Shown: positions 8,325-53,236, numbered from the stretch's first letter. The stretch: DNA of 64,000 nt from Candidatus Falkowbacteria bacterium (GCA_018670895.1 JABHIS010000005.1:3757-67756), one strand, 5' to 3'. Translations and numbers: made by a program. Notes: generated by a model from the sequence alone, not told the origin.

Positions 8325-8708
8325 CTAATTGAGTTTTTTATATGAAATGAAAAATAATTCAATAACCGTAGTGAAAGAAATTACAATCAACATCAACCAC
8401 CAGGTCAAATATCTTTGACTTTGTAAAATCAAAGCCATGATGATTATAAAAGTAAATAATATTGCTTGCCTTGAAGCTAGGCTAATACTCTTTTGCGGGA
8501 CTTCATCTTTTTTTAGTAATTTAATTCTGACCCAAATACCGAACAACGACAGCAAAGATCCCAAGGAAAAAGCTAAACTAATGTAAAATAAAAACAAACC
8601 TAATATCCCAGCTTCAAATGGATTTATAAAAATTAAAACCAAAATCCAGGCTGCCCAACAGATAGCACAGCAAACTGATAAAATGATTGAATACCTAGTT
8701 ATGGTCAT
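8325..8708 (-). CDS. hypothetical membrane protein
   Basis: Hydrophobic ORF with 3-4 predicted TM helices. Start taken at the internal Met (MTITRYSII) to avoid a 35-bp overlap with the upstream gene. Confidence 0.4.
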   Translation of the reverse strand: MTITRYSIILSVCCAICWAAWILVLIFINPFEAGILGLFLFYISLAFSLGSLLSLFGIWVRIKLLKKDEVPQKSISLASRQAILFTFIIIMALILQSQRYLTWWLMLIVISFTTVIELFFISYKKLN

Positions 8709-8730
8709 ATTGCCTATATCAATTTTAGCA

Positions 8731-9057
8731 TTAATATACTGGTCTTTCAATAGAGGTTTGTACAATTTTCAGCTTTTTTACTATTTGACCACCAAATTTC
8801 TTGTTGATAGCCTCAATTATTGAATTTTTCTTAAAATTTAGTTCCTGAGCAATAATTGAATTAGCAGTCTCAACTTTCAAGATCTGACTCTTCAATGAAA
8901 TAACTCTAACCAGCTCGTGCCCCTTTTTTCCCCAAAATTCACGCATTAAACCATTGGCAAACTCAACAACCATACCGGACATTATTTGTTTAGCCAGTGG
9001 TTTTTTCTTAAATCTAGAAAGTAATATTTTTTGTAGTGAATCCGCCATAAATTTCAA
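8731..9057 (-). CDS. DUF721-family (DciA-like) small protein
   Basis: 108 aa. The C-terminal segment ILKVETANSIIAQELNFKKNSIIEAINKK matches the DUF721 signature (V.VdSsaWaqEL......il..iN). Confidence 0.5.
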   Translation of the reverse strand: MKFMADSLQKILLSRFKKKPLAKQIMSGMVVEFANGLMREFWGKKGHELVRVISLKSQILKVETANSIIAQELNFKKNSIIEAINKKFGGQIVKKLKIVQTSIERPVY

Positions 9058-9172
9058 TTACGTAGACTAATTTTGTCTAAATTTACTTAACGACTATTGA
9101 CAAAATATATAATCTATGCTATAATACTAAGATTTGATGATTGAAAAATAACTTTCCCTTAAGGAGGATACC

Positions 9173-9850
9173 ATGAGAAAGTTCATCAATTTGTTTGTGA
9201 TTTTAGGAATAATTATGTTTGCCAGCAACGTGCAAGCAAAAGATGTGGATATGTCAAACTTTGACATGCGCGTGCGATTCAGCCGTGCAATAGAGTCCTG
9301 GGCGTTTCACAACTTCGATGTCCTGTTCGAGGCCAATGCATTTATCACTGACTACCAGACGATGAATGCCATGTTTGGTCTGTTGTACCACGTCGATCGG
9401 AACAGTAAACTGGTTCTGATGATTGGTCAACAGTTGGGCGCAGGCGTGAGCAGCAACAATGTAGCTCTGACCGGTCGCTGGCATCAACGTGTAAGTCGGG
9501 TTGTAGGTTTCAAGTTGGAGGCGGATCTTTTCATTCCCATCCAGGCCAACAATGCCGAGAGCCAACCCACGGTCGGCTTCAGAACCTACGAGTCACTTGA
9601 CTTTATGATCGAGCGCAGGATGTTCATCTCGCTCGGACTGGAACAGGAAAAGCTGGACAACTTCCGATATCGGTTCGGACCCAGTTTCACCTGGCAGTGG
9701 CTTCGAGTTTGGGCCGGATACCTTCATCAGGAAGAATCCGGTACAAAGCAAAGTTCCACAAATCAGCCAACGCCGGTGAACGCACAACCTCGCTGTACTG
9801 ACTGCGACTGCGGAGATATGTTCTTCGCCTCAGTAGCGCTAACCTTCTAA
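9173..9850 (+). CDS. Secreted protein with outer-membrane beta-barrel-like features, GC-rich
   Basis: Preceded by the SD GGAGGA. Signal peptide MRKFINLFVILGIIMFASNVQA|KD. Amphipathic beta-like segments and a C-terminal ...FFASVALTF ending in Phe, which is the signature of OMP C-terminal strands. Local GC is far above background. Confidence 0.5.
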   Translation: MRKFINLFVILGIIMFASNVQAKDVDMSNFDMRVRFSRAIESWAFHNFDVLFEANAFITDYQTMNAMFGLLYHVDRNSKLVLMIGQQLGAGVSSNNVALTGRWHQRVSRVVGFKLEADLFIPIQANNAESQPTVGFRTYESLDFMIERRMFISLGLEQEKLDNFRYRFGPSFTWQWLRVWAGYLHQEESGTKQSSTNQPTPVNAQPRCTDCDCGDMFFASVALTF

Positions 9851-9968
9851 TTTCTGACCGCAACGGTCAAGAAAAACTCTTCAATGCATCTATTGGGGAG
9901 TTTTTTTGTCCATTAAAACATAAAAACATGAAAGCATTAAAGCAATTACAGTAAATGTTCTGATGTTT

Positions 9969-11060
9969 TTATGTTTCAATGTAATTCAGCTTCTTAAACA
10001 CTGCCACTAAAATATTCTCCAAAAATTGATCTCGGGTATGAATATCAATGTCCTTATCTACACCTTCATCTTTTTCCATATAACGCCACATTTTCTTTTT
10101 CTTATCCCACAAATCAGTATTCTTCATCCGACACCAATCTATTTCACCCTCGTCTGGATCTTCAACTAACCCATGGGCCAAGCTTCCTAGAAGCTGCACC
10201 CTTGATACGTAGGAATCAGCCTCATCTGACAATTGATCATTCCACATACCCTCCGCTTCTTGGTAACTGACTTTTTTCAAGTCACGATAAACCTGCTCAG
10301 CTTTTTCTTGATTACCTAAAAAATATTCAACTATAACTTGAAGTAAATAGTTTTCAGTCATTTGACTTGAATCTTCACCAAATTCACCTACTCTATTCAT
10401 CCAAACTTCTGCCTCAACGTCATATAACTCGCTTTGCTGTATCTCACTATAAAAATCCTTAGCTCTTGCCATCTGTCCATCAAACACAAATGCCAGGACG
10501 CCATAAAGCTGTGAATTACAATAAAAATTTTCTGGTCCATCAAATCTATGTTTATATAAACCATCACTCTTGCACCTAATATCAATTAAGTGCAGAAAGC
10601 TATCCGTAAAACGCTCTTGCGGCTTAATTAAATTCATATTAATTGCAGATAAAAACTGTGTAGCTGAAGTTACCCGACTGACACCTGATTCAGATTCAAC
10701 GAAATCATCCCATAATCCGGTATCGCCATAAGCCGTTGTTTTAAATAACCTACCTGTATTTTCTTTGACTTCCTCTGATGGCCCGCTTCGTAGCTTTTCT
10801 AATAATTCATTTGGCTTCATCAACGGAAAAAATTCCTTAGTTTCAATAAAATTAACGATTTGTTCTTTTTTTGTTATATAGTCCCGCATTACCTGAAGTG
10901 CCTCCTTACTTCCCGCTTCCGCCTTCGCCTTAAGCTCAGCAAAACCTAAACCGCCTGAAATCACTTCTAACTCAGACATTAATTTATCAAAATGACGTTG
11001 CTGAACTTCAGTGAAGCTAGCGTGGAGTGCTTTTTCTTGTAATTCGGATTCAATTTTCAT
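9969..11060 (-). CDS. Paralog 1 of a three-gene family (conserved about 85-aa N-terminal module, variable C-terminal domain)
   Basis: 363 aa. N-terminus MKIESELQEKALHASFTEVQQRHFDKLMSELEVISGGLGFAELKAKAEAGSKEALQVMRDYITKKEQIVNFIETKE. The C-terminal domain is homologous to that of paralog 3 (YLLQVIVEYFLGNQEKAEQ ... ENILVAVFKKL). Confidence 0.6.
   Translation of the reverse strand: MKIESELQEKALHASFTEVQQRHFDKLMSELEVISGGLGFAELKAKAEAGSKEALQVMRDYITKKEQIVNFIETKEFFPLMKPNELLEKLRSGPSEEVKENTGRLFKTTAYGDTGLWDDFVESESGVSRVTSATQFLSAINMNLIKPQERFTDSFLHLIDIRCKSDGLYKHRFDGPENFYCNSQLYGVLAFVFDGQMARAKDFYSEIQQSELYDVEAEVWMNRVGEFGEDSSQMTENYLLQVIVEYFLGNQEKAEQVYRDLKKVSYQEAEGMWNDQLSDEADSYVSRVQLLGSLAHGLVEDPDEGEIDWCRMKNTDLWDKKKKMWRYMEKDEGVDKDIDIHTRDQFLENILVAVFKKLNYIET
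10820..11060 (-). repeat. about 240-bp direct repeat unit encoding the shared N-terminal module (copy 1)
   Basis: Near-identical nucleotide strings, for example gacattaatttatcaaaatgacgttgctgaacttc.gtgaagctagc.tg.agtgc, occur at 10975-11040 and 11730-11795. A more diverged copy lies at 12850-12936. Confidence 0.6.
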
Positions 11061-11081
11061 AAACCAACTTTATAATTCAAT

Positions 11082-11813
11082 TTATTCAGGAAAATATAGC
11101 ATATAATTATGTTTTCTTGAAGATAGCTCCCCAGTCTGTAATTCTGCTTCGACATGTACCCTTACTTGCTCAGGCTCATTATTAATATGCTCGACTGCTG
11201 TTATGCTTATTGATGTGACTTCTTCTTTATCAAGCAAAGATTGCAATCGACTACCGACAATGTTTTCTGGATTCCTCTTACTCTTATCAAGTTGATAATG
11301 TTTATGCAATTCTAATCCAAAAATCGACTTAACAGCCAACGTAGTGATAAAACCGTTCAAAACTTGTTGAACATGATCAGTCTTAATTAATTGATCTGAA
11401 AAAAGCCAAAGCGGAGTATTGTCAAGCATTTTTACTTTATAGAGTAATCCACGACTATCCTCTTGGGTAACTTCTTCAACTTCACACATCTTCCCATGGT
11501 ATGGTTTACCTGGATGCCAAACCATCCCCTCATCACCAACACCAATAAAATATGACTTCCACTCTAAATTAGTCCCTAAAGGTATTTCTTTAGTTTCAAT
11601 GAATTCAACAATCTTTTCTTTCTTAGCGATATAATCACGCATTACTTGAAGCGCCTCTTTATCCCCTGCTTCTGCCTTTGCCTTAAGCTCAGCAAACCCA
11701 AAACCATCTGAGATTACTTCCAACTCAGACATTAATTTATCAAAATGACGTTGCTGAACTTCGGTGAAGCTAGCATGAAGTGCGCGTTCTTGTATTTGCT
11801 CTAGTGATTTCAT
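11082..11813 (-). CDS. Paralog 2 of the family (same N-terminal module, unrelated shorter C-terminal domain)
   Basis: 243 aa. The first about 80 aa are about 90% identical to paralog 1 at the protein level and near-identical at the nucleotide level. The C-terminus is unrelated. Confidence 0.6.
   Translation of the reverse strand: MKSLEQIQERALHASFTEVQQRHFDKLMSELEVISDGFGFAELKAKAEAGDKEALQVMRDYIAKKEKIVEFIETKEIPLGTNLEWKSYFIGVGDEGMVWHPGKPYHGKMCEVEEVTQEDSRGLLYKVKMLDNTPLWLFSDQLIKTDHVQQVLNGFITTLAVKSIFGLELHKHYQLDKSKRNPENIVGSRLQSLLDKEEVTSISITAVEHINNEPEQVRVHVEAELQTGELSSRKHNYMLYFPE
11575..11813 (-). repeat. direct repeat unit copy 2
   Basis: See copy 1. About 90% nucleotide identity to 10820-11060. Confidence 0.6.
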
Positions 11814-11823
11814 TTTATAATAG

Positions 11824-12936
11824 TTAATTTTTTATTTTTAATTTCTCGAAAATCGCAGTTAAAATAATATCCATTAACTCATCCGAAGTATTATAACCTT
11901 TTACACTGTTCTCTGTAGCTCGCCAACAACCAGACTCAGGCTCAACCCAACGTGGGTCTTTTTTTAATTCCTGCCATTTTTCTTTTGCCTCATAGGGACT
12001 ACCCAAAATGGCTTCAGCCATGATACCCATTAGTTGATCAGTTGAAGTTCTCTCTACCTCTTCATCGTGATGATGGTAATTAGACTGTTTCCAACCAAGT
12101 TTTGGATCATAATATTCCTGTTTAAGATTTCCAAATCCCTGTCGAGCTTCTTCTTCCTGACCAAGAAAAAAGTTTACTAATTGATACAAAAGTTGATCTT
12201 TAGAATACAAACTTAAATCAGTAAAGTTTAATGTTTTATTTTGAGTTGTATCTGGGGTCACACTAGTAAACCATGAATCAAACTCTTCCATATAAAACTT
12301 AAGTTTCTTTAAATCTGACAAGCGCTGACCAGCAGTATCAGCAAGATCATTTTTGGGCTGGATCAAAACCATCAAAATACTCAAAAATTGCCCTTCAGCA
12401 TCATACTCTTCAACCCCAAGACTCAGATCGGCACAATTATATAGCCTGTTTTCTCGGTTATACATTTTACTTTCCCACGGCTGTGTTATTGAAGTTTGTA
12501 TGTCACCTGTCAATTGGCCTGCCAATTCAAGAAGAACACAATTCCTATGGGTCACTGCATTACCTACCCCACCAAGTTTTTGGGTTAACATTTGCTTTTG
12601 CTTATCAAAGGCTGAAGTATATAACAATACTTGTAATTTTTCTTTGGCTTTTTCAGCTGTGCCTTCATTTAAAATATTTCGCATAGTTTCAGCGTCTATA
12701 TATGGCATTCGCTTGGTTTCAATAAACTCCACAATTTTTTCTTTCTTTGTAATGTAATCCCGCATAATTTGAAGTGCTTCTTTACTACCCAACTCAGCCT
12801 TTGCTTTAAGATCAGCAAATCCTAAACCACCTGAAATCACTTCTAATTCAGACATTAATTTGTCAAAATGTTGTTGCTGAGCCCTATTAAAGTCAACCTT
12901 TAGTGCACTTTCCTGAATTTGTTCTAATGTTTTCAT
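11824..12936 (-). CDS. Paralog 3 of the family, translationally coupled to the helicase-nuclease
   Basis: 370 aa. N-terminal module MKTLEQIQESALKVDFNRAQQQHFDKLMSELEVISGGLGFADLKAKAELGSKEALQIMRDYITKKEKIVEFIETK. Its ATG overlaps the stop of 12940..15918 in an ATGA junction. Confidence 0.6.
   Translation of the reverse strand: MKTLEQIQESALKVDFNRAQQQHFDKLMSELEVISGGLGFADLKAKAELGSKEALQIMRDYITKKEKIVEFIETKRMPYIDAETMRNILNEGTAEKAKEKLQVLLYTSAFDKQKQMLTQKLGGVGNAVTHRNCVLLELAGQLTGDIQTSITQPWESKMYNRENRLYNCADLSLGVEEYDAEGQFLSILMVLIQPKNDLADTAGQRLSDLKKLKFYMEEFDSWFTSVTPDTTQNKTLNFTDLSLYSKDQLLYQLVNFFLGQEEEARQGFGNLKQEYYDPKLGWKQSNYHHHDEEVERTSTDQLMGIMAEAILGSPYEAKEKWQELKKDPRWVEPESGCWRATENSVKGYNTSDELMDIILTAIFEKLKIKN
12700..12936 (-). 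repeat. direct repeat unit copy 3 (more diverged)
   Basis: Conserved blocks gcctttgc.ttaag.tcagcaaa.cc.aaacc.cctga.at.acttc.aa.tcagacattaatttgtcaaaatg. Confidence 0.5.
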
Positions 12937-12939
12937 GTT

Positions 12940-15918
12940 TTACAATTTTCGAAATTCACAAATATCTTTAAAGTCACAATGCCCACAAATGTGTTGACTG
13001 GGTTTAGGATCAAAATTTTGCTTTTTAATTTGTTCAATATTATCCAAAAACCTTTGTTTGAGTTTTTCCTTGTCTTTAGAGTTGCCAAGAAAAGAGACTT
13101 GGCTGTCATCATCAAGAAAATAATAGGTTAATTTTTCTAACTTTATATTCAAAACTTCTTCAGCTGCAATCTGATAGAACATTAGCTGGCGTCGGTCCTC
13201 TGTGGATAATTTTTCTTTAACTTGCCCAGTTTTGTAATCAATAATTTCAAACTGCCCTTTTTCTAATTCATCCACTCGGTCAATACGCCCAACAAAGGTG
13301 TATTCCCCAATCTTCAATCGGAACGACTGTTCCAATAATTTAACTTTTGGTTTGTTTTTTTCAAAACCTTGGTGGAAGTTTTTTAATAAATCTTTGCCTT
13401 TTTCTAAATACTCCTCTTTTTGTTTTGCATTAACATACCAATCATCCTGCCAGTTTTCATTATAAACTTCATATAACCTTTCTAACGACAATAATCTATT
13501 TTGGTTTGCTGGTTCGCGAGACATCCCTGTCTCGCTCCCTCCTACCGCAAATATATCTTGTTGGGTATGCAGTCCAACCGTAAAACATTCTTCCAAAAAT
13601 TTTTGTAAAGTATTGTGAATAGTTGAACCAAATGAAAAATAGTGATTACCAAAGGTTGGAATTTTTAAAACATTGGCAAACTTGTACTTCAAAGGACAAG
13701 TTTCATAAGTCTGCATTTGTGAATAACTAAAATTGCGCGGTAGCTGATATTCAAAAGCCTTAGAGTCATCCTTTTGTACTCGCTCAACTGTAGGCTCAGC
13801 TTTTCCAGATTCTTCAGGTTTATTATACCCTAATTCTGTTAAAAAGCGAGACAATTTCTTTTTTCGTGCTCCACCATAGTCATCAGCTGAAGTGAAGAAC
13901 AATCCCCTTTTTGCTCTGGTCATTGCTACATAAAATAATCTCCGTTCTTCCTCTAAATGAAAATCACCTTCTGAGGAGTCTTCTTTTATCAAAGAATCTG
14001 GAATTTCAATTACCTCTTTACGCTGATCGGTCGGAAATTTTCGATCAACCAAACAAGAAACGAACACATAATCAAATTCTAAACCCTTGGCACTGTGAAT
14101 TGTCATAATACGCACCATGTCCGGACCAGTTTCCACGTCAAACGCCAATTTCCCACTTTCGCCCGATTGCATTTCCATATTCAAAAGCTCCATTAAGTCA
14201 CTAAGCCTCGGATCCTCATACGACATTTCCACTTCTTGAATTTTCTTGAAAAATTGTTGAACAAAATCTAGCGTTTCTTTTGCTTTTGCTGGTTCCAAAT
14301 CATTCAAATACTCCAAATAACCTGAGCCGTACAAAAAACTTAATAAAACTTCAGTCGGTTTTTTATTTTGTGCTAACTGAGTATCTTTTTCAACTTGAAC
14401 TAAAATATTGTTAATTGACTTCAAAGTTTGTTCAGTTAAGCCTGGAACTGTTGAAGCCTGCTTTAATGATTCGAATATAGATATTGATTTTCTCTTAGCT
14501 AAATGAACCAATTTAACAATTTGTTCAGGCTCAATATTTAGAAATGGCAAGTTTAGAATTCGATAAACTGCCGCGCTCTCATGATAATTATCCAGCAACT
14601 TGAAATAATTAATAATATCAACCACAACTGATTTATTGTACAACCCTCGCATAGCCAGGAATTGGTACGGAATTTGAGCTTGTTCTAAATAATTAATAAA
14701 AATATTGGCGCTATCATTAGCCCTAACTAAAATTGCTATATCTGACCACTCCGCTTGCTGATCTTGTTTTAATTTTATTATTTTTTGAATTACTGCCTTT
14801 GCCTCTTCCTCAACAGACGACAAATGATAGTGAACAACCTCGCCTTTTTCAGAAACGTTAGATTTTAATTTTTTATCAATACCTAATTTTTCCTCCAATC
14901 GATATGGATTGTTTTGTAAAATAAAATTGTAGGCTAAATCTAGAATTTCCTGTGTAGATCGATAGTTTTCTATTAATACAACTTCTTTAGCCGTTGGGTA
15001 ATCTTTTTTGAACTGCATTATATTAGAAATCGAAGCTCCACGAAACTTGTAAATGCTCTGATCATCATCTCCTACAACTGTGATATTGTTTTTGGGTGTG
15101 GCCAAAAGTTTAATTAACTCGTATTGAACAAAGTTTGTATCCTGAAACTCGTCAACCAAAATGTGTTTGAACTGTTGACGATATTTAGCCAAAATTAATG
15201 GGCGCTTTTTAAATAATTGAATTGTATAATTTATTAAATCAGCGAAATCCAAGCTCTCATTATCAATTAAAATTTGCTGATAAGTCTGATAGGCATTGGC
15301 AATTTCCTCAATTCGAAGAATTTCTTGTTTTAATATTTCTTTTTGATTAGCTTCGTCAACCTTACTGAAATCTATTTTGTTTACGAAATCGTGAACATCA
15401 TCATTTAACTTGATTTCCTGTGCATATTTTAAATAATTTTCAGGATAAATACCTTCATCCTTGCAACGAGAGAAATGCTTTAACAGTGCGTGGATAAACT
15501 TGGTTGGATTACCTAACGGCTGATAATATTCTAATTTGAACTTGTCCAAATTTTTCCTCACCAAGAGCCAGGCCTCCGTCCCATCCACGAGTTTGTAATT
15601 ATTTGGCAAACCAATATCCAGAGCATGCCGTTTCAAAATTTTGTCACAAAAAGCATGAAAAGTTGAAATCCACAAATCAACATAACCATATGGAAGCATT
15701 TGATCCACGCGCTCTTCCATTTCCTGCGCAGATTTTTCAGTAAAAGTTAAAGCTAATACTTCATCAACATTAGCATTTTTTTCAGTAATCAAATATGCAA
15801 TTCTGGCAGTTACAACCCGAGTCTTCCCCGTACCAGCTCCAGCCACAATCAACTGAGGTCCATCTTCGTGAATAATGGCTTGCTTTTGTTGTTCATTTGA
15901 TTCAGAAATTAGACTCAT
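12940..15918 (-). CDS. UvrD/PcrA-family SF1 helicase fused to a C-terminal Cas4/RecB-type PD-(D/E)xK nuclease with a 4-Cys (Fe-S) cluster
   Basis: Walker A AGAGTGKT, Walker B/motif II DEFQDT, motif IV YRST. The C-terminus has GRIDRVD, EIIDYKTG, QLMFYQIA and cysteines ETCPLKY ... CGHCDFKDIC. Start chosen at ATG 15916-15918 (MSLISESNEQQ...). The track start is an upstream GTG. Confidence 0.85.
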   Translation of the reverse strand: MSLISESNEQQKQAIIHEDGPQLIVAGAGTGKTRVVTARIAYLITEKNANVDEVLALTFTEKSAQEMEERVDQMLPYGYVDLWISTFHAFCDKILKRHALDIGLPNNYKLVDGTEAWLLVRKNLDKFKLEYYQPLGNPTKFIHALLKHFSRCKDEGIYPENYLKYAQEIKLNDDVHDFVNKIDFSKVDEANQKEILKQEILRIEEIANAYQTYQQILIDNESLDFADLINYTIQLFKKRPLILAKYRQQFKHILVDEFQDTNFVQYELIKLLATPKNNITVVGDDDQSIYKFRGASISNIMQFKKDYPTAKEVVLIENYRSTQEILDLAYNFILQNNPYRLEEKLGIDKKLKSNVSEKGEVVHYHLSSVEEEAKAVIQKIIKLKQDQQAEWSDIAILVRANDSANIFINYLEQAQIPYQFLAMRGLYNKSVVVDIINYFKLLDNYHESAAVYRILNLPFLNIEPEQIVKLVHLAKRKSISIFESLKQASTVPGLTEQTLKSINNILVQVEKDTQLAQNKKPTEVLLSFLYGSGYLEYLNDLEPAKAKETLDFVQQFFKKIQEVEMSYEDPRLSDLMELLNMEMQSGESGKLAFDVETGPDMVRIMTIHSAKGLEFDYVFVSCLVDRKFPTDQRKEVIEIPDSLIKEDSSEGDFHLEEERRLFYVAMTRAKRGLFFTSADDYGGARKKKLSRFLTELGYNKPEESGKAEPTVERVQKDDSKAFEYQLPRNFSYSQMQTYETCPLKYKFANVLKIPTFGNHYFSFGSTIHNTLQKFLEECFTVGLHTQQDIFAVGGSETGMSREPANQNRLLSLERLYEVYNENWQDDWYVNAKQKEEYLEKGKDLLKNFHQGFEKNKPKVKLLEQSFRLKIGEYTFVGRIDRVDELEKGQFEIIDYKTGQVKEKLSTEDRRQLMFYQIAAEEVLNIKLEKLTYYFLDDDSQVSFLGNSKDKEKLKQRFLDNIEQIKKQNFDPKPSQHICGHCDFKDICEFRKL

Positions 15919-16145
15919 ATGTGTATATATTAGCACAAAAAAGACCCGTCAGACAAGAGACCCAAATCAGGTATCTTTACATGCTCCTGTCTCTCCTAGG
16001 CCACCTTGAGACTTGACATTACTTGAAATAATTGCTAATCTATTGAAATCAAGATTGTACACATTGACACCAAAAACCATAAATGATATTTTAGAAAAGT
16101 ATTTGTACAGCTAGTTCATTTAAACTCTTAGTGTGAGGAGATCAA

Positions 16146-16412
16146 ATGTCGAGATTCTCTGATGGCCGTTTTTGCACTCAGCCCAATGGGCAAGGAGGAA
16201 CATGCAATGCGTTAATGGAGGAAAAATCAGTTTTTTGGCGTTGTCCTAAAGGGCATGATATAGTTTTCATGGAAAGTGAAGAGATAAAGGAAAAACTTGC
16301 TCGTGAACAAGTACGTTCAGAGCATGGTGGTAAAATTGCTTTTCGTAGTGCTTTATCAATGGACGGAAAAGAACTCTTTGCTAGACCAAACACACGCGGT
16401 GGTGCAAAATAA
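16146..16412 (+). CDS. Small zinc-ribbon protein (paralog A)
   Basis: 88 aa. Cys pattern FCTQP...GTCNA...WRCPKGH. SD GAGGAG upstream. GC-rich. Confidence 0.5.
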   Translation: MSRFSDGRFCTQPNGQGGTCNALMEEKSVFWRCPKGHDIVFMESEEIKEKLAREQVRSEHGGKIAFRSALSMDGKELFARPNTRGGAK

Positions 16413-16438: not shown

Positions 16439-16747
16439 GTGAGCAAAATATTTGAACAAGGGAACTTTTGTCCAGAGTGTGCTCAACATGGACAGTACAA
16501 ACTGATGCAGAAAGGCATAGTTGTTCTACGTTGTCCTGCTTGCCAACATGCCATGCCACTGCCTAAAGCAGAAATAAAACAACTCTCGGATCAAGCAGAA
16601 CTTGAACTAGTTAGAGAAGAACGAATGAAACGAGCGATTATTAGACCAGACATCGGGGAAATTTCCTCCCGCTTTAATGGCCGAAACCCAAGACCGACCG
16701 ATTCAATGACTACAGAGATGAAGAAAACAGGTTGCAAAACAAGATAG
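16439..16747 (+). CDS. Small zinc-ribbon protein (paralog B)
   Basis: 102 aa. CPECAQHG...LRCPACQH (CxxC-N17-CxxC). Same architecture as paralog A. Charged C-terminal tail. Confidence 0.5.
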   Translation: MSKIFEQGNFCPECAQHGQYKLMQKGIVVLRCPACQHAMPLPKAEIKQLSDQAELELVREERMKRAIIRPDIGEISSRFNGRNPRPTDSMTTEMKKTGCKTR

Positions 16748-17444: not shown

Positions 17445-18296
17445 TTACAAACGGCGTCGTCGCCCACTGGTATTTGACTGCCAGTAAGGATCAACGGTAA
17501 CTGTTGAGGTCTCATCTTCGACTAATACTTCAGACTCAAACTCATCTTCTTCGATTGCTACTTCGACCTCGTCCGCATCAACAAGGATCATACTTTCGAT
17601 TTCATCAATGATAACATCCTCATCATCAAGAATAATAGGATCTAGCACTTCGACTTCATCCGCATCAACAAGGATAACACCCGCGTCATCATCGTAATCA
17701 AGAATAATCTCATCGGGATTTGGTCCGACTTCAATTTCACTTGGATGATCGTCAGTTGTGTCAACCATGACACCTTCATCTTCTTCAGGCTCAGGCGTAA
17801 CTTCAGGCGCCTCAGCTCTGTTAGCCTTGGCGCCTTGGCTAAAATCCGGCGGTCCACCGTGGGCAGTCACCCCAATTGAAGTGTCTTCAGTAAAGTCAAC
17901 CACCCTCCAACGTTCGCCATCAAACACGGCCAGCTTGACCCAGACAGTCAATTTGGGATGCTTGCGCTTGATGTTAGCAACAGCTTTTTCCAGATCAGCT
18001 TTGTAAGCTTTACGCTCAGCTGCTCGATCTCTGAACTTTTGAGTTCCACCATAAGCGCCACAATCATCATGAGCAACCAAGTAAACCTCAGTTACTCCAT
18101 GTAGATCAACTGACAAGTTTACCATCTTCATGGTACTGTCACGAGTTATTACATCGGCCAACATTTTCTGTCCACCAGGAATTGTGACTACATCACAATC
18201 GTCCCGTAGTCCATTATCAATCATGAACTTGTGAACAGCACCTTGGATCCTAAAATCCATACATGTAACCAATAAAGAAGCACAGTTATGCGACAT
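17445..18296 (-). CDS. Beta-carbonic-anhydrase-like protein with a long acidic repetitive C-terminal tail
   Basis: Start at MSHNCASLLVTCMDFR, preceded by the SD AGGAGGG. CxDxR (CMDFR) and HxxC (HDDCGAYGG) zinc-ligand motifs. The tail is D/E/V-rich with (ILVDADEVEV) repeated. The central part is GC-rich. Confidence 0.45.
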   Translation of the reverse strand: MSHNCASLLVTCMDFRIQGAVHKFMIDNGLRDDCDVVTIPGGQKMLADVITRDSTMKMVNLSVDLHGVTEVYLVAHDDCGAYGGTQKFRDRAAERKAYKADLEKAVANIKRKHPKLTVWVKLAVFDGERWRVVDFTEDTSIGVTAHGGPPDFSQGAKANRAEAPEVTPEPEEDEGVMVDTTDDHPSEIEVGPNPDEIILDYDDDAGVILVDADEVEVLDPIILDDEDVIIDEIESMILVDADEVEVAIEEDEFESEVLVEDETSTVTVDPYWQSNTSGRRRRL

Positions 18297-18415
18297 TTTT
18301 TCCCTCCTGTGTAAAGAACTTGACTGATTGTAAAGTTTAGCACATATTATAATATTGTCAAGTACTATTGCAAAATAACTCAAAAAAGCCCCTTTAGGGG
18401 CTTTTAACGTTTATC

Positions 18416-18826
18416 TTAAAGTTCCTTGATCTCAATTTCTTCATCTTCATTAAAAACAACTAGCATTTTACGTACAGCGATATCTGGATATTTTTTCTTT
18501 ACTATTTCTTCTGCCGTTGTCATATCTTCGTCATATTTTGCTTTTTCAGATTCATCATCGTCAAAACTATCACTTCCACCATAGGCACCACAATCCTGAT
18601 GCGCCATAAATATAACTGTATTTATACCGTGGAGTTTTACTGAAAGTTCAATTTGTTTCAAAACTGTAGCACGAGTATCTTCATCCAATAATGCTTTTTG
18701 TGCACCAGCAATAGATACTAAATCATAATCTTTTGTTAATCCGTTCTCATTTACCCAACAACAAATAGCTTTATGAAATCGAAAATCCATGCAGGTAATT
18801 AAAAGATTGTTGCAATTGTGTGACAT
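18416..18826 (-). CDS. Beta-carbonic-anhydrase-like protein (short paralog)
   Basis: 136 aa. MSHNCNNLLITCMDFR ... FMAHQDCGAYGG. Same CxDxR/HxxC spacing as the neighbour. Confidence 0.45.
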   Translation of the reverse strand: MSHNCNNLLITCMDFRFHKAICCWVNENGLTKDYDLVSIAGAQKALLDEDTRATVLKQIELSVKLHGINTVIFMAHQDCGAYGGSDSFDDDESEKAKYDEDMTTAEEIVKKKYPDIAVRKMLVVFNEDEEIEIKEL

Positions 18827-44595: not shown

Positions 44596-46416
44596 ATGAA
44601 ACATTACTTGAATACAATAGTTCTCCTACTTGTTATTATTTTCTTCTCGGTGACCTGCAGTAAAAATGAACAGCCAAATGAAGTCATAGATTCAAAACCC
44701 AACAGCTCCGCTAAACTACTTGCTAAATTCAAGCACACACAAGCAGTTTATGGAATTGACTGGCATCCTGATGGAAAACTAATTGCATCTAGACACTACC
44801 GAGACACAGCTTTCATCTGGAACACTGAAAACAAAACTCGACAATTTGTTCATGATGGCAAGCAACTCACCGACATAAAATTCAGTACTGATGGTAGTTA
44901 CTTAGCCTTTATTGATCACGAAATTTCTAAATATAGCTGTCAGCGCGAATGTCGTTACTCTGACTATGAACGTTGCAATGACTGCAAGAAAAAACACGAG
45001 AACGATTACGATGTGAGATTCTTGTCAAAAGTCTACGACCTTAGACTAAAACATTACTTAAAAGAAATAGCAAGTGGCTCCGCTCAAACAATCTCAGCTG
45101 ACCTCAAGGTATATGTCACCCACGCTCTCGATTCAAAAATAATCTACTTTGATGGGACATACTTCTTTTCCTCCAGCAGTCGTGCAGGGATGGAGACTTT
45201 CATAGAGTCTAGTTCGAAAAATCACTTTTTTCATGAAGTAAAAAGTTATTCTGTGCGAAAAACAGAAGAAACAAAAGAAGGAAATACACACCTCGGCGCA
45301 ATGACAATTTTCTTGTCCACAAAAGGAAATCTGTTAAAGATTTTCAATCAAGCCGACGACGGGAAGGGGCCTCATTGTTCCATAAAACAATGCAGTCATG
45401 ATTACAAAATTATGGCTGCAGAGTGGCAACCCGGAACTAAGAAAATAACAGTTTTAAGTTCTGACAACATTCTAAGTCTTTGGGATAGTTGTTTCTCAGG
45501 TAAACAGCTTTACACCTACAATCACTCTGGCAGTGAAGCAGTGACCCTAAAATGGAATGTATCAGGTGATGTTCTGGCAGTTCAATTCATGAACAATATT
45601 TTACTGTTCAATGAAAAATTGGAACTCCAAAAAACACTGGATATTATGAGTAATGATATTGCCTGGAACAAAGATGGCAATATTTTAGCAGTCATTACCA
45701 AAAATAAAATTTATTTTTGGGACAACCTGAATTCGAATCTAACTTTTCATGAAAGTTCAGAAAAAATTAATGATTTTGCCTGGAATCCGGAATTCAATCA
45801 ATTCGCCCTGGCGACTGAAGTGAATGACGACGAAGGCTTTGTAGAAATTTGGGAGATTGACTCTTCTTATAGAATCATCGTCGCCAACAAAAAGAGAACT
45901 TCCAATAATACAGAACATCAGCTGACAATCAAAGAAGAAACAGTAAAAAAATTAACCACTGTTCGCTCTCTCATAAAACAATTACAAAAAAAGGAAGAAT
46001 CACTATCAGATGATCTTCGATCCTTCCAAACTGACGTAGACAGATACAAATCAACAATCACTGACTTGAAACTACACAACAATATTGCAAGCTATAAAGA
46101 AGCGGTCAAGAATGACCGGATAAACAATTATCTTGTAGCGATGCAAAAAGCTTTGGCCTACATGGACTTTATTAAACATGAGCTTTTAACTACTAGCAAA
46201 AGTTTAGTGGAGTCTGAAGGCACTCAATTACAACTGGAGCTTGATGCAAAAATTCTGGACAGCTTAGACGAGAACAAATTGGACCAGATGATTGCTCAAT
46301 TGGACTTGGTTATCACAAAAATTCAACCAAACGCCCAGGAACTCGTGATTAAAGAAAATGACACACAAAAAATACCATTAGAAAAACTATACAATGAGTA
46401 TTTTGAAGATGAGTAG
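44596..46416 (+). CDS. Surface-protein family member C (lipoprotein-like signal, WD40/beta-propeller repeats, conserved C-terminal module)
   Basis: Signal (FFSVTC|SKNE). WD-like repeats (IDWHPDGKLIAS...IWN, AEWQPGTKKITV...LWD, LKWNVSGDVLAV, DIAWNKDGNILAV...FWD, FAWNPEFNQFALA...IWE). C-terminal ...LQLELDAKILDSLDENKLDQMIAQLDLVITKIQPNAQELVIKENDTQKIPLEKLYNEY. Confidence 0.6.
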   Translation: MKHYLNTIVLLLVIIFFSVTCSKNEQPNEVIDSKPNSSAKLLAKFKHTQAVYGIDWHPDGKLIASRHYRDTAFIWNTENKTRQFVHDGKQLTDIKFSTDGSYLAFIDHEISKYSCQRECRYSDYERCNDCKKKHENDYDVRFLSKVYDLRLKHYLKEIASGSAQTISADLKVYVTHALDSKIIYFDGTYFFSSSSRAGMETFIESSSKNHFFHEVKSYSVRKTEETKEGNTHLGAMTIFLSTKGNLLKIFNQADDGKGPHCSIKQCSHDYKIMAAEWQPGTKKITVLSSDNILSLWDSCFSGKQLYTYNHSGSEAVTLKWNVSGDVLAVQFMNNILLFNEKLELQKTLDIMSNDIAWNKDGNILAVITKNKIYFWDNLNSNLTFHESSEKINDFAWNPEFNQFALATEVNDDEGFVEIWEIDSSYRIIVANKKRTSNNTEHQLTIKEETVKKLTTVRSLIKQLQKKEESLSDDLRSFQTDVDRYKSTITDLKLHNNIASYKEAVKNDRINNYLVAMQKALAYMDFIKHELLTTSKSLVESEGTQLQLELDAKILDSLDENKLDQMIAQLDLVITKIQPNAQELVIKENDTQKIPLEKLYNEYFEDE

Positions 46417-46527: not shown

Positions 46528-48747
46528 ATGTCCAGATGGCTAAAGACAATTATTACTGTTATTATTATCATTTTTGCTTGTTCTTGTAACAAAGACAAAA
46601 AGGCCAAGAAAAATAAGTCAACTCGTCCTGAAGTCGCTGAAAAAAACTCCCCTAACTCCAATACTGAACCAGCTCCCCTCTCACAAGAAAAAGAAGCTCC
46701 ACCAAAGTCAAAAAAAGAAATTTCCGAAGAAAAGCTTGAACATGTAAAGCATCTTCGCAGAAAACTCGAAAGAAAAGAAAGAACCTTGGCTGGCGCACTT
46801 ATTACATACAAAGACAAAATTTCTATTTTTGTTCAAGAAATCAAACAAGAACGTAACCGTAGAAACTTGGTTGAATACAATCAGGCAATTTCAAGTAATT
46901 CAATCAAGCATAATCTCGAGGCAATTCAAAAAGCTGAGGCCTACTGGGGAATTACTAATAGGGAAAAAGTAAAAACAAAACTGGCAATTGTCGACGCAGA
47001 AGGAACTGAAAAACTACTTGATCTAGACATCACCATGTTTAGCACCATGCCTGAAGATGAAATCGACAAACTACTTGATGAACTTGACCTTGTAATTAAT
47101 AGAATCCAACCGACAGCCAGAGATCTTGTTATCACAGACAAGGAAACTGTGCTTACTCCTCTTGATGAGATTTACGAAAAACATATTCGTAAAGAGGAAC
47201 GTGAGCGAGAAAAAAAGGAAATTGAGCGTAAAAAAAAAGCTGAAGCTGACCGGTTAGAACGAGAGCGTCAGGTAAAACTAGCAAAAGAAAAAGCGTTAGC
47301 AGATACCCAGGCTCGTGCAGCCCTTAATGCTGAAGCTCGTCGCCAAGCGTTAATTGCTAGGAAACAAGCCGATGAAGAGGCTGCTAGTCAAGAGAGGACT
47401 GCCAGACTACAAGCAATCGCCGAGGCTACACGCCAAGCAAAAATTGCCAGACAGCAAATAACAGCCGAAGAAAACCGCATAGCTGATGAAGTAGTAAAAC
47501 AAATTGAGTATAAGAAACGCGAAGCTGAAAATCGTGCCCGAGAAAAAGCTGCTGAACTTGCTAGTAAGCAAAAAACAGCAGCAGCGATTGCTAACATCAA
47601 AATTATCAAACCCACTATCTGGACTTCTATTGCATATTACAGACCTGGGGGTGATGGTGCAGGTTACATCCGTTGGTCAAATGATAGCAAAGCAGTGGCT
47701 ATCACCACCTCATCAAAAATGACTATTAAGGGTGTTCCTCAAAGCACAACTTATGAGCTTGAATCTAATTACGATAACAGCGACTATATAACCGACATGA
47801 TCTGGTCTCAAAGCAAAACCAAAATTGCAATCTATTATTCACATTCTTGTGCACTGGAAAGAGGAAACGCCAAGATTGCAATTTACTCGTTAACAAATGA
47901 TAAAGAGCTCTGGAGGGTGGAAGTCGAATGCTCCCAAGCCGCTAGTTTCCTTGGTTGGTTTGGTGATTATATTGTCCTTAAAGCATCCGCTGGGTACAGT
48001 AGAAATTTTCACATTTACATTATCAATACGAAAACCAAGAAAACTCAATCATTCACAGCTGACGCGATAACCCCAGTAAACAACTCCTCTGTCTTTGCTG
48101 CAAGCTCAAAAAGAATAATCCAAGTCAGTCTTTCTGACAGAACAATTCTAAAAGAGTTTAAGTTTTGTCGAGATGATGACGAGTCTCTTTATTATTCTTT
48201 TTGCCCAGGAGAGATTGACATTCATAAACTCGCCTACACGAGCGGGCATCTAATTTCATCAGAGTCGCCACAAAACGGAGAAAGTAGCTTCTCCATTTGG
48301 GACACAACTTCTGGAAATAAACTCCACTGGTTTAAAGGTGACGAACCAAGAGATCTTTGGTGGCTAAAAGACGGCAAAACAGCAGTTATTGCTTTGTCGT
48401 CTGGCACAATTTTTACAGTAAATGCGAAAAGTGGATCAATTTACGAGAAAAAGCTCGTAGATGGTGCGATTGGCTTTTATGGCTATAATGTAAACACTTG
48501 GTCCACTAAAAAACCTCATCTTGTTATCAATAAAAATTCTCCTCAGCACGAAACAGCTCTTAATGAAAAAGCAGGTTCGTACAATACTCTCTTTGTCATG
48601 GATATTAGGGACCAACAAACAAAGGCCGTCTTGGTTATGGAGTCAGATATCTCAGATTCTGTCAGACTTTCATGGAGCCCAAACGGCAAGTACCTCGCAA
48701 TTGGAGACAAGGGACTCCTTCATGTTTTCAATGTAAGCAATATTTGA
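46528..48747 (+). CDS. Surface-protein family member D (lipoprotein-like, conserved module near N-terminus, long coiled coil, C-terminal beta-propeller)
   Basis: Signal IIIFAC|SCNKDKK. Module ...KLLDLDITMFSTMPEDEIDKLLDELDLVINRIQPTARDLVITDKETVLTPLDEIYEK. E/K/R/A-rich coiled coil of about 170 aa. C-terminal repeats SWSPNGKYLAIGD...VFNV, WWLKDGKTAVIAL...FTVN. Confidence 0.6.
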   Translation: MSRWLKTIITVIIIIFACSCNKDKKAKKNKSTRPEVAEKNSPNSNTEPAPLSQEKEAPPKSKKEISEEKLEHVKHLRRKLERKERTLAGALITYKDKISIFVQEIKQERNRRNLVEYNQAISSNSIKHNLEAIQKAEAYWGITNREKVKTKLAIVDAEGTEKLLDLDITMFSTMPEDEIDKLLDELDLVINRIQPTARDLVITDKETVLTPLDEIYEKHIRKEEREREKKEIERKKKAEADRLERERQVKLAKEKALADTQARAALNAEARRQALIARKQADEEAASQERTARLQAIAEATRQAKIARQQITAEENRIADEVVKQIEYKKREAENRAREKAAELASKQKTAAAIANIKIIKPTIWTSIAYYRPGGDGAGYIRWSNDSKAVAITTSSKMTIKGVPQSTTYELESNYDNSDYITDMIWSQSKTKIAIYYSHSCALERGNAKIAIYSLTNDKELWRVEVECSQAASFLGWFGDYIVLKASAGYSRNFHIYIINTKTKKTQSFTADAITPVNNSSVFAASSKRIIQVSLSDRTILKEFKFCRDDDESLYYSFCPGEIDIHKLAYTSGHLISSESPQNGESSFSIWDTTSGNKLHWFKGDEPRDLWWLKDGKTAVIALSSGTIFTVNAKSGSIYEKKLVDGAIGFYGYNVNTWSTKKPHLVINKNSPQHETALNEKAGSYNTLFVMDIRDQQTKAVLVMESDISDSVRLSWSPNGKYLAIGDKGLLHVFNVSNI

Positions 48748-49756: not shown

Positions 49757-51034
49757 TTAATGCGTCGCGCAACTGATACATGGATCGTATGCCCGAATCA
49801 AAGTTTTTATTAACGAATCTCTCTTCTTATCTGACAACTTTTTAATTTGCGGCAAATATTTCTCAAGATCTTTTTCCAAATTAGCCAAAAACATAGCGGT
49901 TGGTGTAATTACATTGCAATGAATAATTTCGCCCACCTTGTTAAATTCATATTCATGATACAAGATCCCACGAGGTGCCTCCATCACAGCATAACCCTTA
50001 CCAGCCTTAACTATGAAATCAACTTTTAGGTTTTTCATAAACTTCGGTTTTGCTCGCAGTTTCTCATATTGGACAAAAAGTTTATTTATCTCCTCAATTG
50101 AATTAATAATCTCAGTTGTCTGGGCTACTATATTATAGAATGAATTATAACACGGCAAGTTCACTTTTAGCTTATTCCAAGAAGCTTTTGCCTCTTTGTT
50201 CAGCTGAGCATAATTATTGTTCACTCGAGCAAGAGCGCCAACCATGAACGTTTCTTTCATATGATGTGAGCGTTTAACTTTTTCATATGGTAAAACAGTT
50301 TCTTGCACGTCACTTAGGAAATCCTCGACTTTATCATAACTATCATTATCTGAGAAATAAATGCTCCCATCATAAACTGCATATTCATTTTTATTTTTCA
50401 AAGAAACATAATTTGTTGGTCTTTGAAACTTTGGTAATTTATATTTCAAAACCACATCATGAATTTGCCTAGCTTGTAATAGAACTTGCTTTTGTTTTTG
50501 CATTAATTCTTTAAGTTCAACAAAGTCTGGCTCAACATTAAATCCACCAACTACACTATTAATCGGATGAACGGTTCGACCTCCAACAACTCGCGCTAAC
50601 TGCACTCCCCAATCACGAACTTGAAGAGCAATTTTTGACTCTTTGGTATACTTATTTATCAAAGCAAAATTATTACTAACACCTACGATATCAGGAAACG
50701 AGAAAAAGAAAGCATGTACTGCATGACTATGAATTATTTGCGCATTTTCTAGGATCTTACGAAGCAATATTATTTCCGGAGTTACCCTGACACTAAAAGC
50801 TGCCTCAACGGCCTTAATTGAAGTTAAATTATGCACAATCGGGCATACACCACAAATCCGCGAAGTTACAATCGGAGCTTCGTAATATTTTCTATTTAAT
50901 AATATTCCTTCGATCAAACGAGCTCCCTCTTCTGTGTCCACGCGAGCTTGAGCAAAATCATTACCAAGCAAAGCCCCAACGAAACTCAGGTGGCCTTCAG
51001 TTTTGGCGATGTGATTTATTTTAATAGTTTTCAT
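49757..51034 (-). CDS. [NiFe]-hydrogenase large (alpha) subunit, group-3-like, without C-terminal cleavable extension
   Basis: N-terminal RICGVCPIVH (RxCGxCxxxH). The C-terminus ends exactly at DPCISCATH (DPCxxCxxH). Confidence 0.85.
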   Translation of the reverse strand: MKTIKINHIAKTEGHLSFVGALLGNDFAQARVDTEEGARLIEGILLNRKYYEAPIVTSRICGVCPIVHNLTSIKAVEAAFSVRVTPEIILLRKILENAQIIHSHAVHAFFFSFPDIVGVSNNFALINKYTKESKIALQVRDWGVQLARVVGGRTVHPINSVVGGFNVEPDFVELKELMQKQKQVLLQARQIHDVVLKYKLPKFQRPTNYVSLKNKNEYAVYDGSIYFSDNDSYDKVEDFLSDVQETVLPYEKVKRSHHMKETFMVGALARVNNNYAQLNKEAKASWNKLKVNLPCYNSFYNIVAQTTEIINSIEEINKLFVQYEKLRAKPKFMKNLKVDFIVKAGKGYAVMEAPRGILYHEYEFNKVGEIIHCNVITPTAMFLANLEKDLEKYLPQIKKLSDKKRDSLIKTLIRAYDPCISCATH

Positions 51035-52053
51035 AAAGGATATTTTATTTTACCTGTATTAACAATTAACATTTTTTTATCTTTCGGTAATTTGTTTTTC
51101 AATTGAAGCATCAACGCCAACCCAGCAATACCAGAGGCCTCACAATCTATTTGTTGGCACGCAGCAACTCTCAAGGCCTCATCAATAAATTGTTCTTTAA
51201 CGTTATAAACATCCGATTTCGAACCACAATAACCAGCATAGCGATAAAGTTTAATCCACTGCTCATCATAATTAACAAAGGGCAAATGAGGGGAAAACAA
51301 TTTATTAGCCTTAGTCTTCGGATTGTTAGTGGTCGACCCAAAAAAATTACAAGCTCTCAATTTATTCACTCTACCCCTAAACCTTGGGTCATGATGACTT
51401 GTCACAACCTCCCGTTTATTAATATTTAAAATATTTTCAAATAAATGTCCCGACCCAAACGGAACAAAACAATAGTCAGGAGAACTGTTAATAATTTCAT
51501 AACTTAACCAGTCATAATATCTAGTTGTCGGATCAAGTGCTTCACTTGACGTAATATCGAAACCATTTTTATTTTTTGTTAATCGCAAAATTTCATTCCA
51601 AGAAAACGCTTTTTCACTTAAATCAGTTTTAAATATCTTGCAACCAGTTTTATACAAAAATTTCAGAATTTCATCATCAATGTGATTATCAACTAGTACT
51701 CGCAAATTAGGTAATTTATACTTTTTCAATTGCACCTGAATGGCAATCGCTGCTGAACCTGATGAGATTATTGAAACATCGGGTAATTTACTTATTTGTC
51801 CCCCTTTTTTTGACAACAAGAAATCACGATAAGTCACTACCATTTCCCAAGCCATTCTATCTTTATGCGTCCCCGTTGGATTATGACTTTCATCCTTCAA
51901 CCAAACATTATTAAATCCAGGTACTTTTATTTTGTAAGTTGGAGTAGCGGGAAACTTCGGATCATCAACTGGAAATTCGGGCTTTTCTGGATTATTTTCC
52001 GATGCAATTACAATTGACTTTAATATTTTTTCTTCTTGCTTGGTTAATGCCAT
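51031..52053 (-). CDS. PLP-dependent fold-type II enzyme, threonine-synthase-like, embedded in the hydrogenase operon
   Basis: LKDESHNPTGTHKDRMAW. Compare the threonine synthase / cysteate synthase motif NPTGSFKDRG, where the Lys binds the cofactor as a Schiff base. 4-bp overlaps on both sides. Confidence 0.6.
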   Translation of the reverse strand: MALTKQEEKILKSIVIASENNPEKPEFPVDDPKFPATPTYKIKVPGFNNVWLKDESHNPTGTHKDRMAWEMVVTYRDFLLSKKGGQISKLPDVSIISSGSAAIAIQVQLKKYKLPNLRVLVDNHIDDEILKFLYKTGCKIFKTDLSEKAFSWNEILRLTKNKNGFDITSSEALDPTTRYYDWLSYEIINSSPDYCFVPFGSGHLFENILNINKREVVTSHHDPRFRGRVNKLRACNFFGSTTNNPKTKANKLFSPHLPFVNYDEQWIKLYRYAGYCGSKSDVYNVKEQFIDEALRVAACQQIDCEASGIAGLALMLQLKNKLPKDKKMLIVNTGKIKYPL

Positions 52054-52066
52054 AAATAATTTCTAA

Positions 52067-52834: not shown

Positions 52835-52867
52835 AGTAATAAGTAAAATGTAAAAGGTAAAAAGTAA

Positions 52868-53236
52868 TCACAACTGTTTTTGAATTGATTTTATCAAACC
52901 ATTTATAAGTCTTTTCACCTCATCTGCATGATTTACTAACTCTTCACAAAAACTGCTTTCTAATATATTAAGACCTCTTGAAACAAGTAAAAAACTTTGC
53001 ACTTCTGACAACGAACCCCTCGCTTGATAATAAAATCGAATCTTATCTTTGAAATAATAGCGAGAAAATCCTTCAGCAATGTTGGCGGTGATCGATATTG
53101 AAGCTCTTCGGATTTGACTTATAAGTCCAAATTTTTCTTCAGCAGGAAAATCCGATGTCACCTCATAAACTTTTAAAGTAAATTTATATGCACGTTGCCA
53201 AGCCTTTAAATCGTAATAATTATTTATTTTATTCAT
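52868..53236 (-). CDS. Four-helix-bundle protein (TIGR02436-like)
   Basis: 122 aa. ...ASISITANIAEGFSRYYFKDKIRFYYQARGSLSEV... Confidence 0.7.
   Translation of the reverse strand: MNKINNYYDLKAWQRAYKFTLKVYEVTSDFPAEEKFGLISQIRRASISITANIAEGFSRYYFKDKIRFYYQARGSLSEVQSFLLVSRGLNILESSFCEELVNHADEVKRLINGLIKSIQKQL

Follow-up and report, generated by a model that had tools for sequence, protein, structure and literature searches.

A constant N-terminal head followed by variable tails is a known kind of multigene architecture. The PE/PPE proteins of mycobacteria and the LXG/WXG100 proteins carry a short helical constant N-terminus before unrelated C-termini, lie in tandem arrays, and show lineage-restricted expansion and fast evolution. 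F-box and SOCS-box/BTB receptors follow the same logic, pairing a small helical constant domain with WD40, leucine-rich repeat (LRR) or other binding modules under birth-and-death turnover, and the bacterial effector-associated domains (EADs) reportedly described by Kaur et al. 2020 are said to have an analogous architecture with one docking domain. Here we analyze a 64,000-nt stretch of DNA from a Candidatus Falkowbacteria bacterium (GCA_018670895.1 JABHIS010000005.1:3757-67756), referred to as the window, in whose coordinates positions are given unless a locus is named. On its minus strand, between 9969 and 15936, four co-directional open reading frames (ORFs) encode a helicase-nuclease (HEL) followed by three proteins, P1 to P3, with a shared head and swapped tails. 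An initial annotation of the sequence proposed that these proteins were functionally coupled to the helicase-nuclease, as in specificity-subunit, cassette-switching or defence systems. We conclude with high confidence that P1-P3 are members of an undescribed modular family, limited to one genus-level group of Falkowbacteria and inserted at this position, and that they are not accessories of the helicase. The head domain is new, and its taxonomic range is very narrow.

The four ORFs lie where the initial annotation placed them. The genes and their head-coding repeats, the latter delimited by repeat search (family D1), tblastn and identities, are:

12940-15918, minus strand: helicase-nuclease, 992 aa, a UvrD/PcrA-type superfamily 1 helicase with a C-terminal RecB/Cas4-type PD-(D/E)XK iron-sulfur (Fe-S) nuclease.
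11824-12936, minus strand: P1, 370 aa, head (residues 1-76) and a ~294-aa tail homologous to the P3 tail.
11082-11813, minus strand: P2, 243 aa, head and a ~166-aa beta-rich tail.
9969-11060, minus strand: P3, 363 aa, head and a ~287-aa (alpha/alpha)6-barrel tail.
12709-12936, minus strand: head-coding repeat in P1.
11586-11813, minus strand: head-coding repeat in P2.
10833-11060, minus strand: head-coding repeat in P3.

The head comprises the first 76 residues of P1-P3, with 50 invariant columns; its coding DNA forms three direct repeats of 239 nt (tblastn E 5e-36 to 2e-47). The initial annotation had recognized this shared module and its direct repeats, which we confirm; the length it gave, about 85 aa, is reduced to ~76 aa, and the ~90% DNA identity it reported between copies was not reproduced. 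Pairwise DNA identities of the heads are 75%, 75% and 80%, and 95% is reached only at nt 31-90 of P2 versus P3. A search with P3 returned 55 proteins of 200-480 aa, of which the named ones all come from Candidatus Falkowbacteria metagenome-assembled genomes (locus tags HN858_, HOM83_, HN643_, HOL46_). The head is 70-84% identical in a 20-sequence sample of the family and stands at the extreme N-terminus in all members found. An exhaustive profile search of 1.84 billion representative proteins gave only 54 matches, and neither the GTDB species representatives nor IMG/VR contained the head. A profile of divergent heads, used to widen the family, added 12 short matches only, and we found no paper describing such a family in Falkowbacteria or the candidate phyla radiation (CPR).

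The candidate novelty of the module, claimed from the start, was upheld. As first reported, no known domain is present in P1-P3, which have no match in Pfam, NCBIfam, PADLOC or PHROGs. Twenty heads gave no significant Pfam match at E <= 10, with only Pan3_PK and TraM below threshold; the head has no PDB sequence match, and PDB searches of three other family members were also empty. Its weak matches were only to coiled-coil-like regions (Pan3, TraM, V-ATPase subunit G), together with a weak match of one head to ComC (E 0.035). In AlphaFold2 models (P3, predicted local distance difference test (pLDDT) 84 and predicted template-modelling score 0.78; P2, pLDDT 77), the head forms four helices, at about residues 4-13, 18-35, 40-48 and 52-74. 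Its invariant polar residues are QQ20-21, E30, E32, R59 and KKE64-66. Residues 29-37 read SELEVISGG (in P3, 10950-10976, minus strand) at the end of helix 2, which is predicted to be amphipathic; double-glycine leaders have the core ELxxIxGG, which SELEVISGG fits. G36 is replaced by D in ~9/55 members, P2 included, and conservation across residues 38-76 equals that across 10-37. P1-P3 are acidic (isoelectric point (pI) 4.8-5.4) and have no transmembrane (TM) segment or signal peptide. A DNA-binding role of the head is unlikely because the head itself is acidic (pI 5.2-6.6).

The tails vary in the way originally described. Those of P1 and P3 are homologous (26% identity, E 2e-8), and the P2 tail is unrelated to either (E > 0.2), confirming a constant head with swapped tails. 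The P3 tail is an (alpha/alpha)6 barrel with a six-hairpin glycosidase/epimerase-like fold, every match being at most 12% identical, and has five homologues; by homology, the P1 tail is probably a barrel of the same type. The beta-rich P2 tail (model pLDDT 77) is a candidate SH3/KOW/Tudor-like barrel, and most members of 200-270 aa align loosely with its pattern of two 'GD'-containing beta units. The tails of 56 family proteins fell into 24 clusters (BLASTP, 1e-4), and three members have Pfam WD40 propellers. Classifiable tails comprise the (alpha/alpha)6 barrel, SH3/Tudor-like barrels, WD40 and other beta-propellers, and LRR-like tails recognized by eye, folds known above all from modules that bind ligands or proteins. 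No toxin domain was found in the tails, and no immunity-like genes were found in the arrays.

We inspected loci amounting to ~150 kb of the genome. A hidden Markov model (HMM) of the head, applied to the fetched loci, identified ~30 head genes in at least eight tandem arrays in the window's organism. The arrays and single genes, with their neighbours (PBP, penicillin-binding protein; ProRS, TyrRS and ArgRS, the prolyl-, tyrosyl- and arginyl-tRNA synthetases), are:

Window: three head genes; the helicase-nuclease gene, orf225 and DciA adjoin.
L003: three head genes, with MurI and an M50 protease (RseP).
L004: five head genes, after PBP.
L017: three more head genes, around a Mur ligase.
L005: four head genes, before a Mur ligase and MurB.
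L039/L016: eight head genes, one before TyrRS and seven after it, up to ArgRS.
L012: two head genes.
L014: one head gene.
L015: one head gene, whose product has a WD40 tail; it follows the ribosomal operon and is flanked by Map and RuvX/RecO.

A further 8-9 head genes lie on one 30-kb contig (L001) of a sister species, here species B. Every copy in the window is a complete ORF with its own ATG, and the arrays consist of head genes only, among unrelated housekeeping genes. Several arrays adjoin PBP, Mur ligases, MurI, MurB or Alr, and others adjoin ribosomal, tRNA-synthetase or repair genes; a link to peptidoglycan was considered and not established. A defence island or mobile element was rejected, given the housekeeping surroundings, the lack of any PADLOC or PHROG match for P1-P3, and the absence of the head from IMG/VR. 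Directly upstream of the eight-gene array, L039 654-3239 encodes an 861-aa P-loop protein (AAA_5 2e-9, weak nSTAND3); it was considered as a head-bearing partner and rejected, having no head. Four-helix-bundle genes of the 23S_rRNA_IVP/bAvd-like type occur in many copies (window 58929-59327 and 52868-53236, minus strand; L004 2127-2504 and 14358-15929; L005 3133-3522). They recur near several head arrays and beside a gene for a major vault protein (MVP) homologue, and one L004 copy is fused to alanine racemase.

Sequence divergence within the family is old. Among 23 head copies from the two species, the median number of synonymous substitutions per site (dS) was ~1.2, near saturation, and that of nonsynonymous substitutions per site (dN) was ~0.12; the head protein has therefore been under purifying selection. 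Head identity within a genome (0.757) was similar to that between genomes (0.741), which argues against concerted evolution. On these grounds we reject the recent duplication or gene conversion first read from the repeats; recent origin holds for only a few neighbouring pairs, such as the 213- and 217-aa members in L005 (94%). Rates were compared between species A, the window's organism, and species B (omega, dN/dS):

Housekeeping neighbours: amino-acid identity 88-94%, omega 0.04-0.07.
Orthologous family members, whole: amino-acid identity 71-79%.
Heads: amino-acid identity 81-88%, omega 0.11-0.15.
Tails: amino-acid identity 67-75%, omega 0.17-0.43.

The tails thus evolve 3-6x faster than neighbouring genes. 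Species A and B differ in what their arrays contain, and strains possibly do too. L004 and L017 are 99.7% identical over 7.2 kb (Band_7, PBP, and head genes of 421, 230 and 352 aa) and split at a gene boundary inside the array (L004 ~9970 / L017 ~7245), beyond which each has other head genes and other neighbours; this breakpoint reflects a rearrangement at strain level or else an assembly made chimeric by the head repeats. A head-family pseudogene at L001 2855-3544, broken into two pieces, a head fragment of 56 aa and an ORF of 137 aa, provides direct evidence of gene death within an array. We conclude that the family turns over by birth and death and that the pressure on it is relaxed or diversifying.

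The position of P1-P3 beside the helicase was assessed by synteny, for which two downstream genes are needed:

9173-9850, plus strand: orf225, a 225-aa signal-peptide protein, convergent, with an N-terminal hydrophobic segment and no Pfam match.
8731-9057, minus strand: DciA (Pfam DciA), the gene directly after the helicase-nuclease gene in head-free relatives.

Twenty HEL orthologues from other Patescibacteria (42-73% identity) were compared, and none had a head gene within 5 kb (0/20; head HMM, E <= 10). The six closest are head-free and run CvpA-HEL-DciA-orf146-ProRS-MreB. HEL and DciA are 4 nt apart in L026; in L018 and L019 the gap contains only a convergent gene, similar to orf225 in its orientation, its size and the signal peptide it encodes. 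No BLASTP match at 1e-5 joins orf225 to the L018 and L019 proteins. P1-P3 lie exactly between HEL and orf225/DciA. With six relatives running HEL-DciA-orf146-ProRS-MreB, the trio is a genus-level insertion downstream of the helicase, and orf225, the older occupant of the HEL-DciA gap, marks its downstream edge. The only other head genes found after a helicase are those of species B (HEL 92% identical; order HEL, P0002, then a second head gene of the (alpha/alpha)6 type), for which descent alone is a sufficient explanation. Moreover, P3 and P0002 have a saturated dS of 2.4, compared with 0.5-1.0 for flanking genes (HEL 1.0), and therefore the post-helicase arrays of the two species contain different paralogues. 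Together with the location of ~27 of the ~30 head genes of this organism in other arrays, the 20 orthologous loci lead us to reject coupling to the helicase; the head shows no consistent linkage to this operon, an outcome that the initial annotation had itself named as counting against its reading.

The helicase-nuclease itself bears out the fusion of a UvrD/PcrA helicase to a Cas4/RecB-like nuclease that was initially described (Pfam UvrD-helicase PF00580 1.4e-80, UvrD_C PF13361 4.6e-54, PDDEXK_1 PF12705 1.6e-37; NCBIfam TIGR00372 cas4, 63.5 bits against a cut-off of 65). Its open frame extends to a GTG at 15936; public gene calls and orthologues start at the ATG at 15918, which is most likely the start of a 992-aa protein. 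The motor motifs are present (Walker A GAGTGKT at residue 27, DEFQD at 256), as are the nuclease motifs GRIDRVD, IIDYK and FYQIA, and C740 with CGHCDFKDIC at 978 completes a predicted metal-binding, four-cysteine Fe-S signature of the Cas4/AddB type. The domain order is that of AddA/RecB/AdnB-type enzymes, with Walker A/B, D..(D/E)xK and QxxxY intact, and the cysteine signature is shared with AddB and Cas4; unlike AddA, RecB and AdnB, however, this helicase is a single polypeptide with no adjoining AddB, RecC/RecD or AdnA. It scores well under every NCBIfam equivalog cut-off. The core matches the PADLOC GajB and DRT helicase models strongly, and no GajA (an OLD-family ATPase-nuclease) or reverse transcriptase adjoins it in the window or the 20 orthologous loci; membership of Gabija or DRT systems was therefore rejected, the matches being generic to the UvrD core. 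Its neighbours are P1-P3, orf225 and DciA downstream, and two small Zn-ribbon proteins and CvpA upstream. The synteny with DciA, orf146, ProRS and the Mre genes points to a link of the helicase-nuclease to replication or repair. We conclude that it is an ordinary AddA/AdnB-like, single-chain helicase-nuclease, a housekeeping enzyme conserved across Patescibacteria, whose conserved neighbour is DciA.

We propose, tentatively and at somewhat less than an even chance, that the family works as a set of docking adaptors. The array was inserted between the helicase-nuclease gene and its ancestral neighbours, the convergent signal-peptide gene and DciA, and the trio is probably co-transcribed with the helicase merely by virtue of its position; the tandem arrays in general are probably co-transcribed with the genes upstream of them. 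Each family protein is a soluble, acidic, two-part molecule, with the constant four-helix head and one of at least 24 unrelated tails. The head would serve as a docking module attaching all members to one shared partner encoded elsewhere, and the tails would supply different targets, giving an interchangeable set of adaptors or receptors whose members arise and are lost by birth and death of genes. Docking is suggested by the polar and hydrophobic residues of the head that never vary, by its unfailing place at the N-terminus and by tails of binding type. A partner in the cytoplasm seems to us the likelier, since the proteins lack a signal peptide, we saw no exporter in the ~10 annotated loci, and modules of the WD40, Tudor-like and LRR kinds usually work inside cells. 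The shared partner is not the helicase-nuclease. The proposal resembles F-box proteins as an analogy of architecture only, since there is no homology and no ubiquitin system here, and it differs from EADs in that no STAND/NTPase protein with the family head was found. Several points weigh against it. A candidate partner gene was not found in the ~150 kb of loci inspected, and a linked machine elsewhere in the genome would have escaped that scope. Fast evolution and turnover suit exported, host-directed effectors equally well. (alpha/alpha)6 barrels are usually enzymes, and some tails may be catalytic rather than binding. The head was compared by sequence only, and a known fold may have been missed. 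Finally, adjacency to the helicase in two species is weak evidence of some link.

The head could instead be the recognition domain of an undescribed sorting route, for effector delivery to a host or for loading cargo into an MVP shell, which we regard as unlikely, if deserving real weight. A 76-residue tag would then send ~30 different domains, binding or enzymatic, to a single destination. The form of this idea in which the head is an N-terminal signal for secretion or translocation, and the family a set of exported effectors of an episymbiotic CPR bacterium directed at hosts or competitors, is to our mind equally unlikely. It fits the lineage-specific expansion in a small genome, the birth-and-death turnover and the rapid evolution of the tails, and extracellular proteins that bind cell walls or act on glycans include some with SH3-like and (alpha/alpha)6 folds. 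The SELEVISGG motif, which fits a double-glycine leader core and sits at a helix end, and the weak ComC match point the same way, and double-glycine, NHLP and Nif11 precursors likewise form many paralogues with a conserved N-terminal segment and an ELxxIxGG-like motif. G36 of the GG pair is however not invariant; conservation continues 40 residues past the GG, unlike in a cleaved leader, and the 'cores' here would be folded domains of 130-400 aa. No modifying enzyme was found nearby, and no C39-peptidase ABC exporter, type VII or other secretion gene was seen in the ~10 annotated loci. In Pfam the heads match none of PE, PPE, LXG and WXG100, with the threshold relaxed to E <= 10, and the tails are of binding type, not toxins, lipases or PGRS repeats. 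Polymorphic toxins (Rhs, CDI, MafB, MuF) also have constant N-termini, swapped C-termini and arrays, from which this family differs by its lack of toxin domains, interleaved immunity genes and 5'-truncated orphan cassettes. The vault version of the sorting idea, in which the head would direct tails into particles of the genome's MVP homologue (60209-63124), is the least probable explanation of those we weighed. Both head-bearing species encode such a homologue (MVP_shoulder 3e-28, Vault_3 4e-9), the species B gene is 5 kb from a head array, and in eukaryotic vaults a dedicated interaction domain serves for cargo loading; yet MVP homologues account for > 1,700 matches across many phyla without the head, the window gene is 47 kb from P1-P3, and no search found similarity of the head to the vault INT domain.

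A head that dispensed with any separate partner, acting as a homo- or hetero-oligomerisation domain that bundles tails into multivalent complexes or a scaffold, seems improbable. Its short helical form with heptad-like invariant hydrophobic positions, the coiled-coil-like character of its only sequence matches, and the tandem, probably co-expressed genes would all suit self-assembly, while the invariant polar residues suggest a specific interface over generic coiled-coil packing. We consider it very improbable that P1-P3 serve the helicase-nuclease as accessory, sensor or specificity subunits in a new kind of defence or cassette-switching module. Their genes run in the same direction as HEL, the gaps from HEL through P1 and P2 to P3 are 3, 10 and 21 nt, no terminator was found between HEL and P1 by terminator scan, head genes follow the helicase in species B as well, and the helicase core scores strongly in PADLOC. 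Against these stand the head-free orthologues with HEL-DciA adjacency, the ~90% of head genes located elsewhere in the organism, the different paralogues in the two species, the generic nature of the PADLOC matches without GajA or reverse transcriptase, and housekeeping surroundings with no island. Cassette switching in particular is rejected: there are no inverted repeats or silent copies and no recombinase within +/-10 kb, and identity of the head DNA reaches no more than 75-80%. The head repeats here are direct, a further difference from hsdS shufflons and pilin or tail-fibre invertons. Docking of the heads to a shared partner is thus the reading we retain, as a tentative one.

Transcription signals at the locus include one element at each end:

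9911-9981, strand not assigned: AT-rich hairpin with 28-bp arms between the convergent P3 and orf225 (inverted repeat I2; RNA fold -23.4 kcal/mol, z -5.2).
15927-15956, minus strand: promoter-like TTGTCT-18 nt-TGcTAATAT, found by eye, scoring 8/12 and under the scan threshold.

The hairpin reported in the initial annotation is real. It covers the P3 stop codon, has no U-run after it on the minus strand and was missed by the terminator scan; it is likely a bidirectional transcript end for P3 and orf225. The leaderless promoter thought likely at 15937-15990 was not confirmed. The promoter-like element stops 8 nt before the ATG at 15918, a position compatible with a near-leaderless helicase transcript. 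The ATGA overlap described between the helicase stop and the P1 start is absent, the boundary being TAA-AAC-ATG with a 3-nt spacer.

The remainder of the window is ordinary chromosome, with ATP synthase, tRNA synthetase, MreBCD-PBP2, glycolysis and hydrogenase genes. From 8325 to 15918 (minus strand), and in L018-L037, a gene order kept across Patescibacteria runs helicase-nuclease, (DciA), a 146-aa four-TM-like protein, ProRS, MreB, MreC, MreD and PBP2; in distant genomes (helicase 42-46% identical), an orf146 homologue directly follows the helicase. The orf225-like proteins (210-225 aa; window 9173-9850, plus strand; L018 8008-8634 and L019 9155-9787, minus strand) have a clear signal peptide, hydrophobic/aromatic C-termini (..LTF, ..LNL, ..LTL) and no Pfam or PHROG match. 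They may be beta-barrel-like envelope proteins, which, if true, would be unexpected in a CPR cell, supposed to have a single membrane. Divergent from the helicase are two small paralogous Zn-ribbon-like proteins of 88 and 102 aa with CxxC...CxxC (16146-16412 and 16439-16747, plus strand), both kept in species B (L038 194-790) and one with a homologue in L026. Tandem Pro_CA_2 paralogues, putatively carbonic anhydrase-like, lie at 17445-18383 and 18416-18826 (minus strand), the longer with a very acidic C-terminal extension of ~150 aa and repeated ILVDADEVEV-type motifs.

Two large WD40/beta-propeller proteins of 606 and 739 aa, without the head, are encoded at 44596-46416 and 46528-48747 (plus strand), on the opposite strand, where AT skew and GC skew switch sign. 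A minus-strand cluster at 49757-55532 encodes a NiFe-hydrogenase large subunit with Oxidored_q6, Fer4 and FAD/NAD-binding subunits, with PALP and bAvd-like genes interleaved, and looks like a cytoplasmic group-3-type enzyme. The MVP homologue (60209-63124, minus strand) is a 971-aa protein in a patch of GC 0.43-0.48 against ~0.35 elsewhere. Its species B orthologue (L001 16050-18965) is 83% identical and has the same HD / bAvd-like / LexA context, and MVP homologues also occur in Parcubacteria; no paper treating MVP together with the candidate phyla radiation turned up in a full-text search.

The genomes of CPR bacteria (Patescibacteria) are tiny, and their dealings with hosts are largely unknown. 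Removing a false lead, our analysis places the helicase-nuclease among ordinary repair and replication genes, not at the core of a novel defence module. At an estimated ~2% of genes, assuming a genome of ~1-1.5 Mb, the head family is a strong candidate for lineage-specific biology, with possible roles in host interaction, conflict or regulated targeting. Identification of the head's partner would establish a docking domain not described before, and perhaps with it a novel system of sorting or adaptors.

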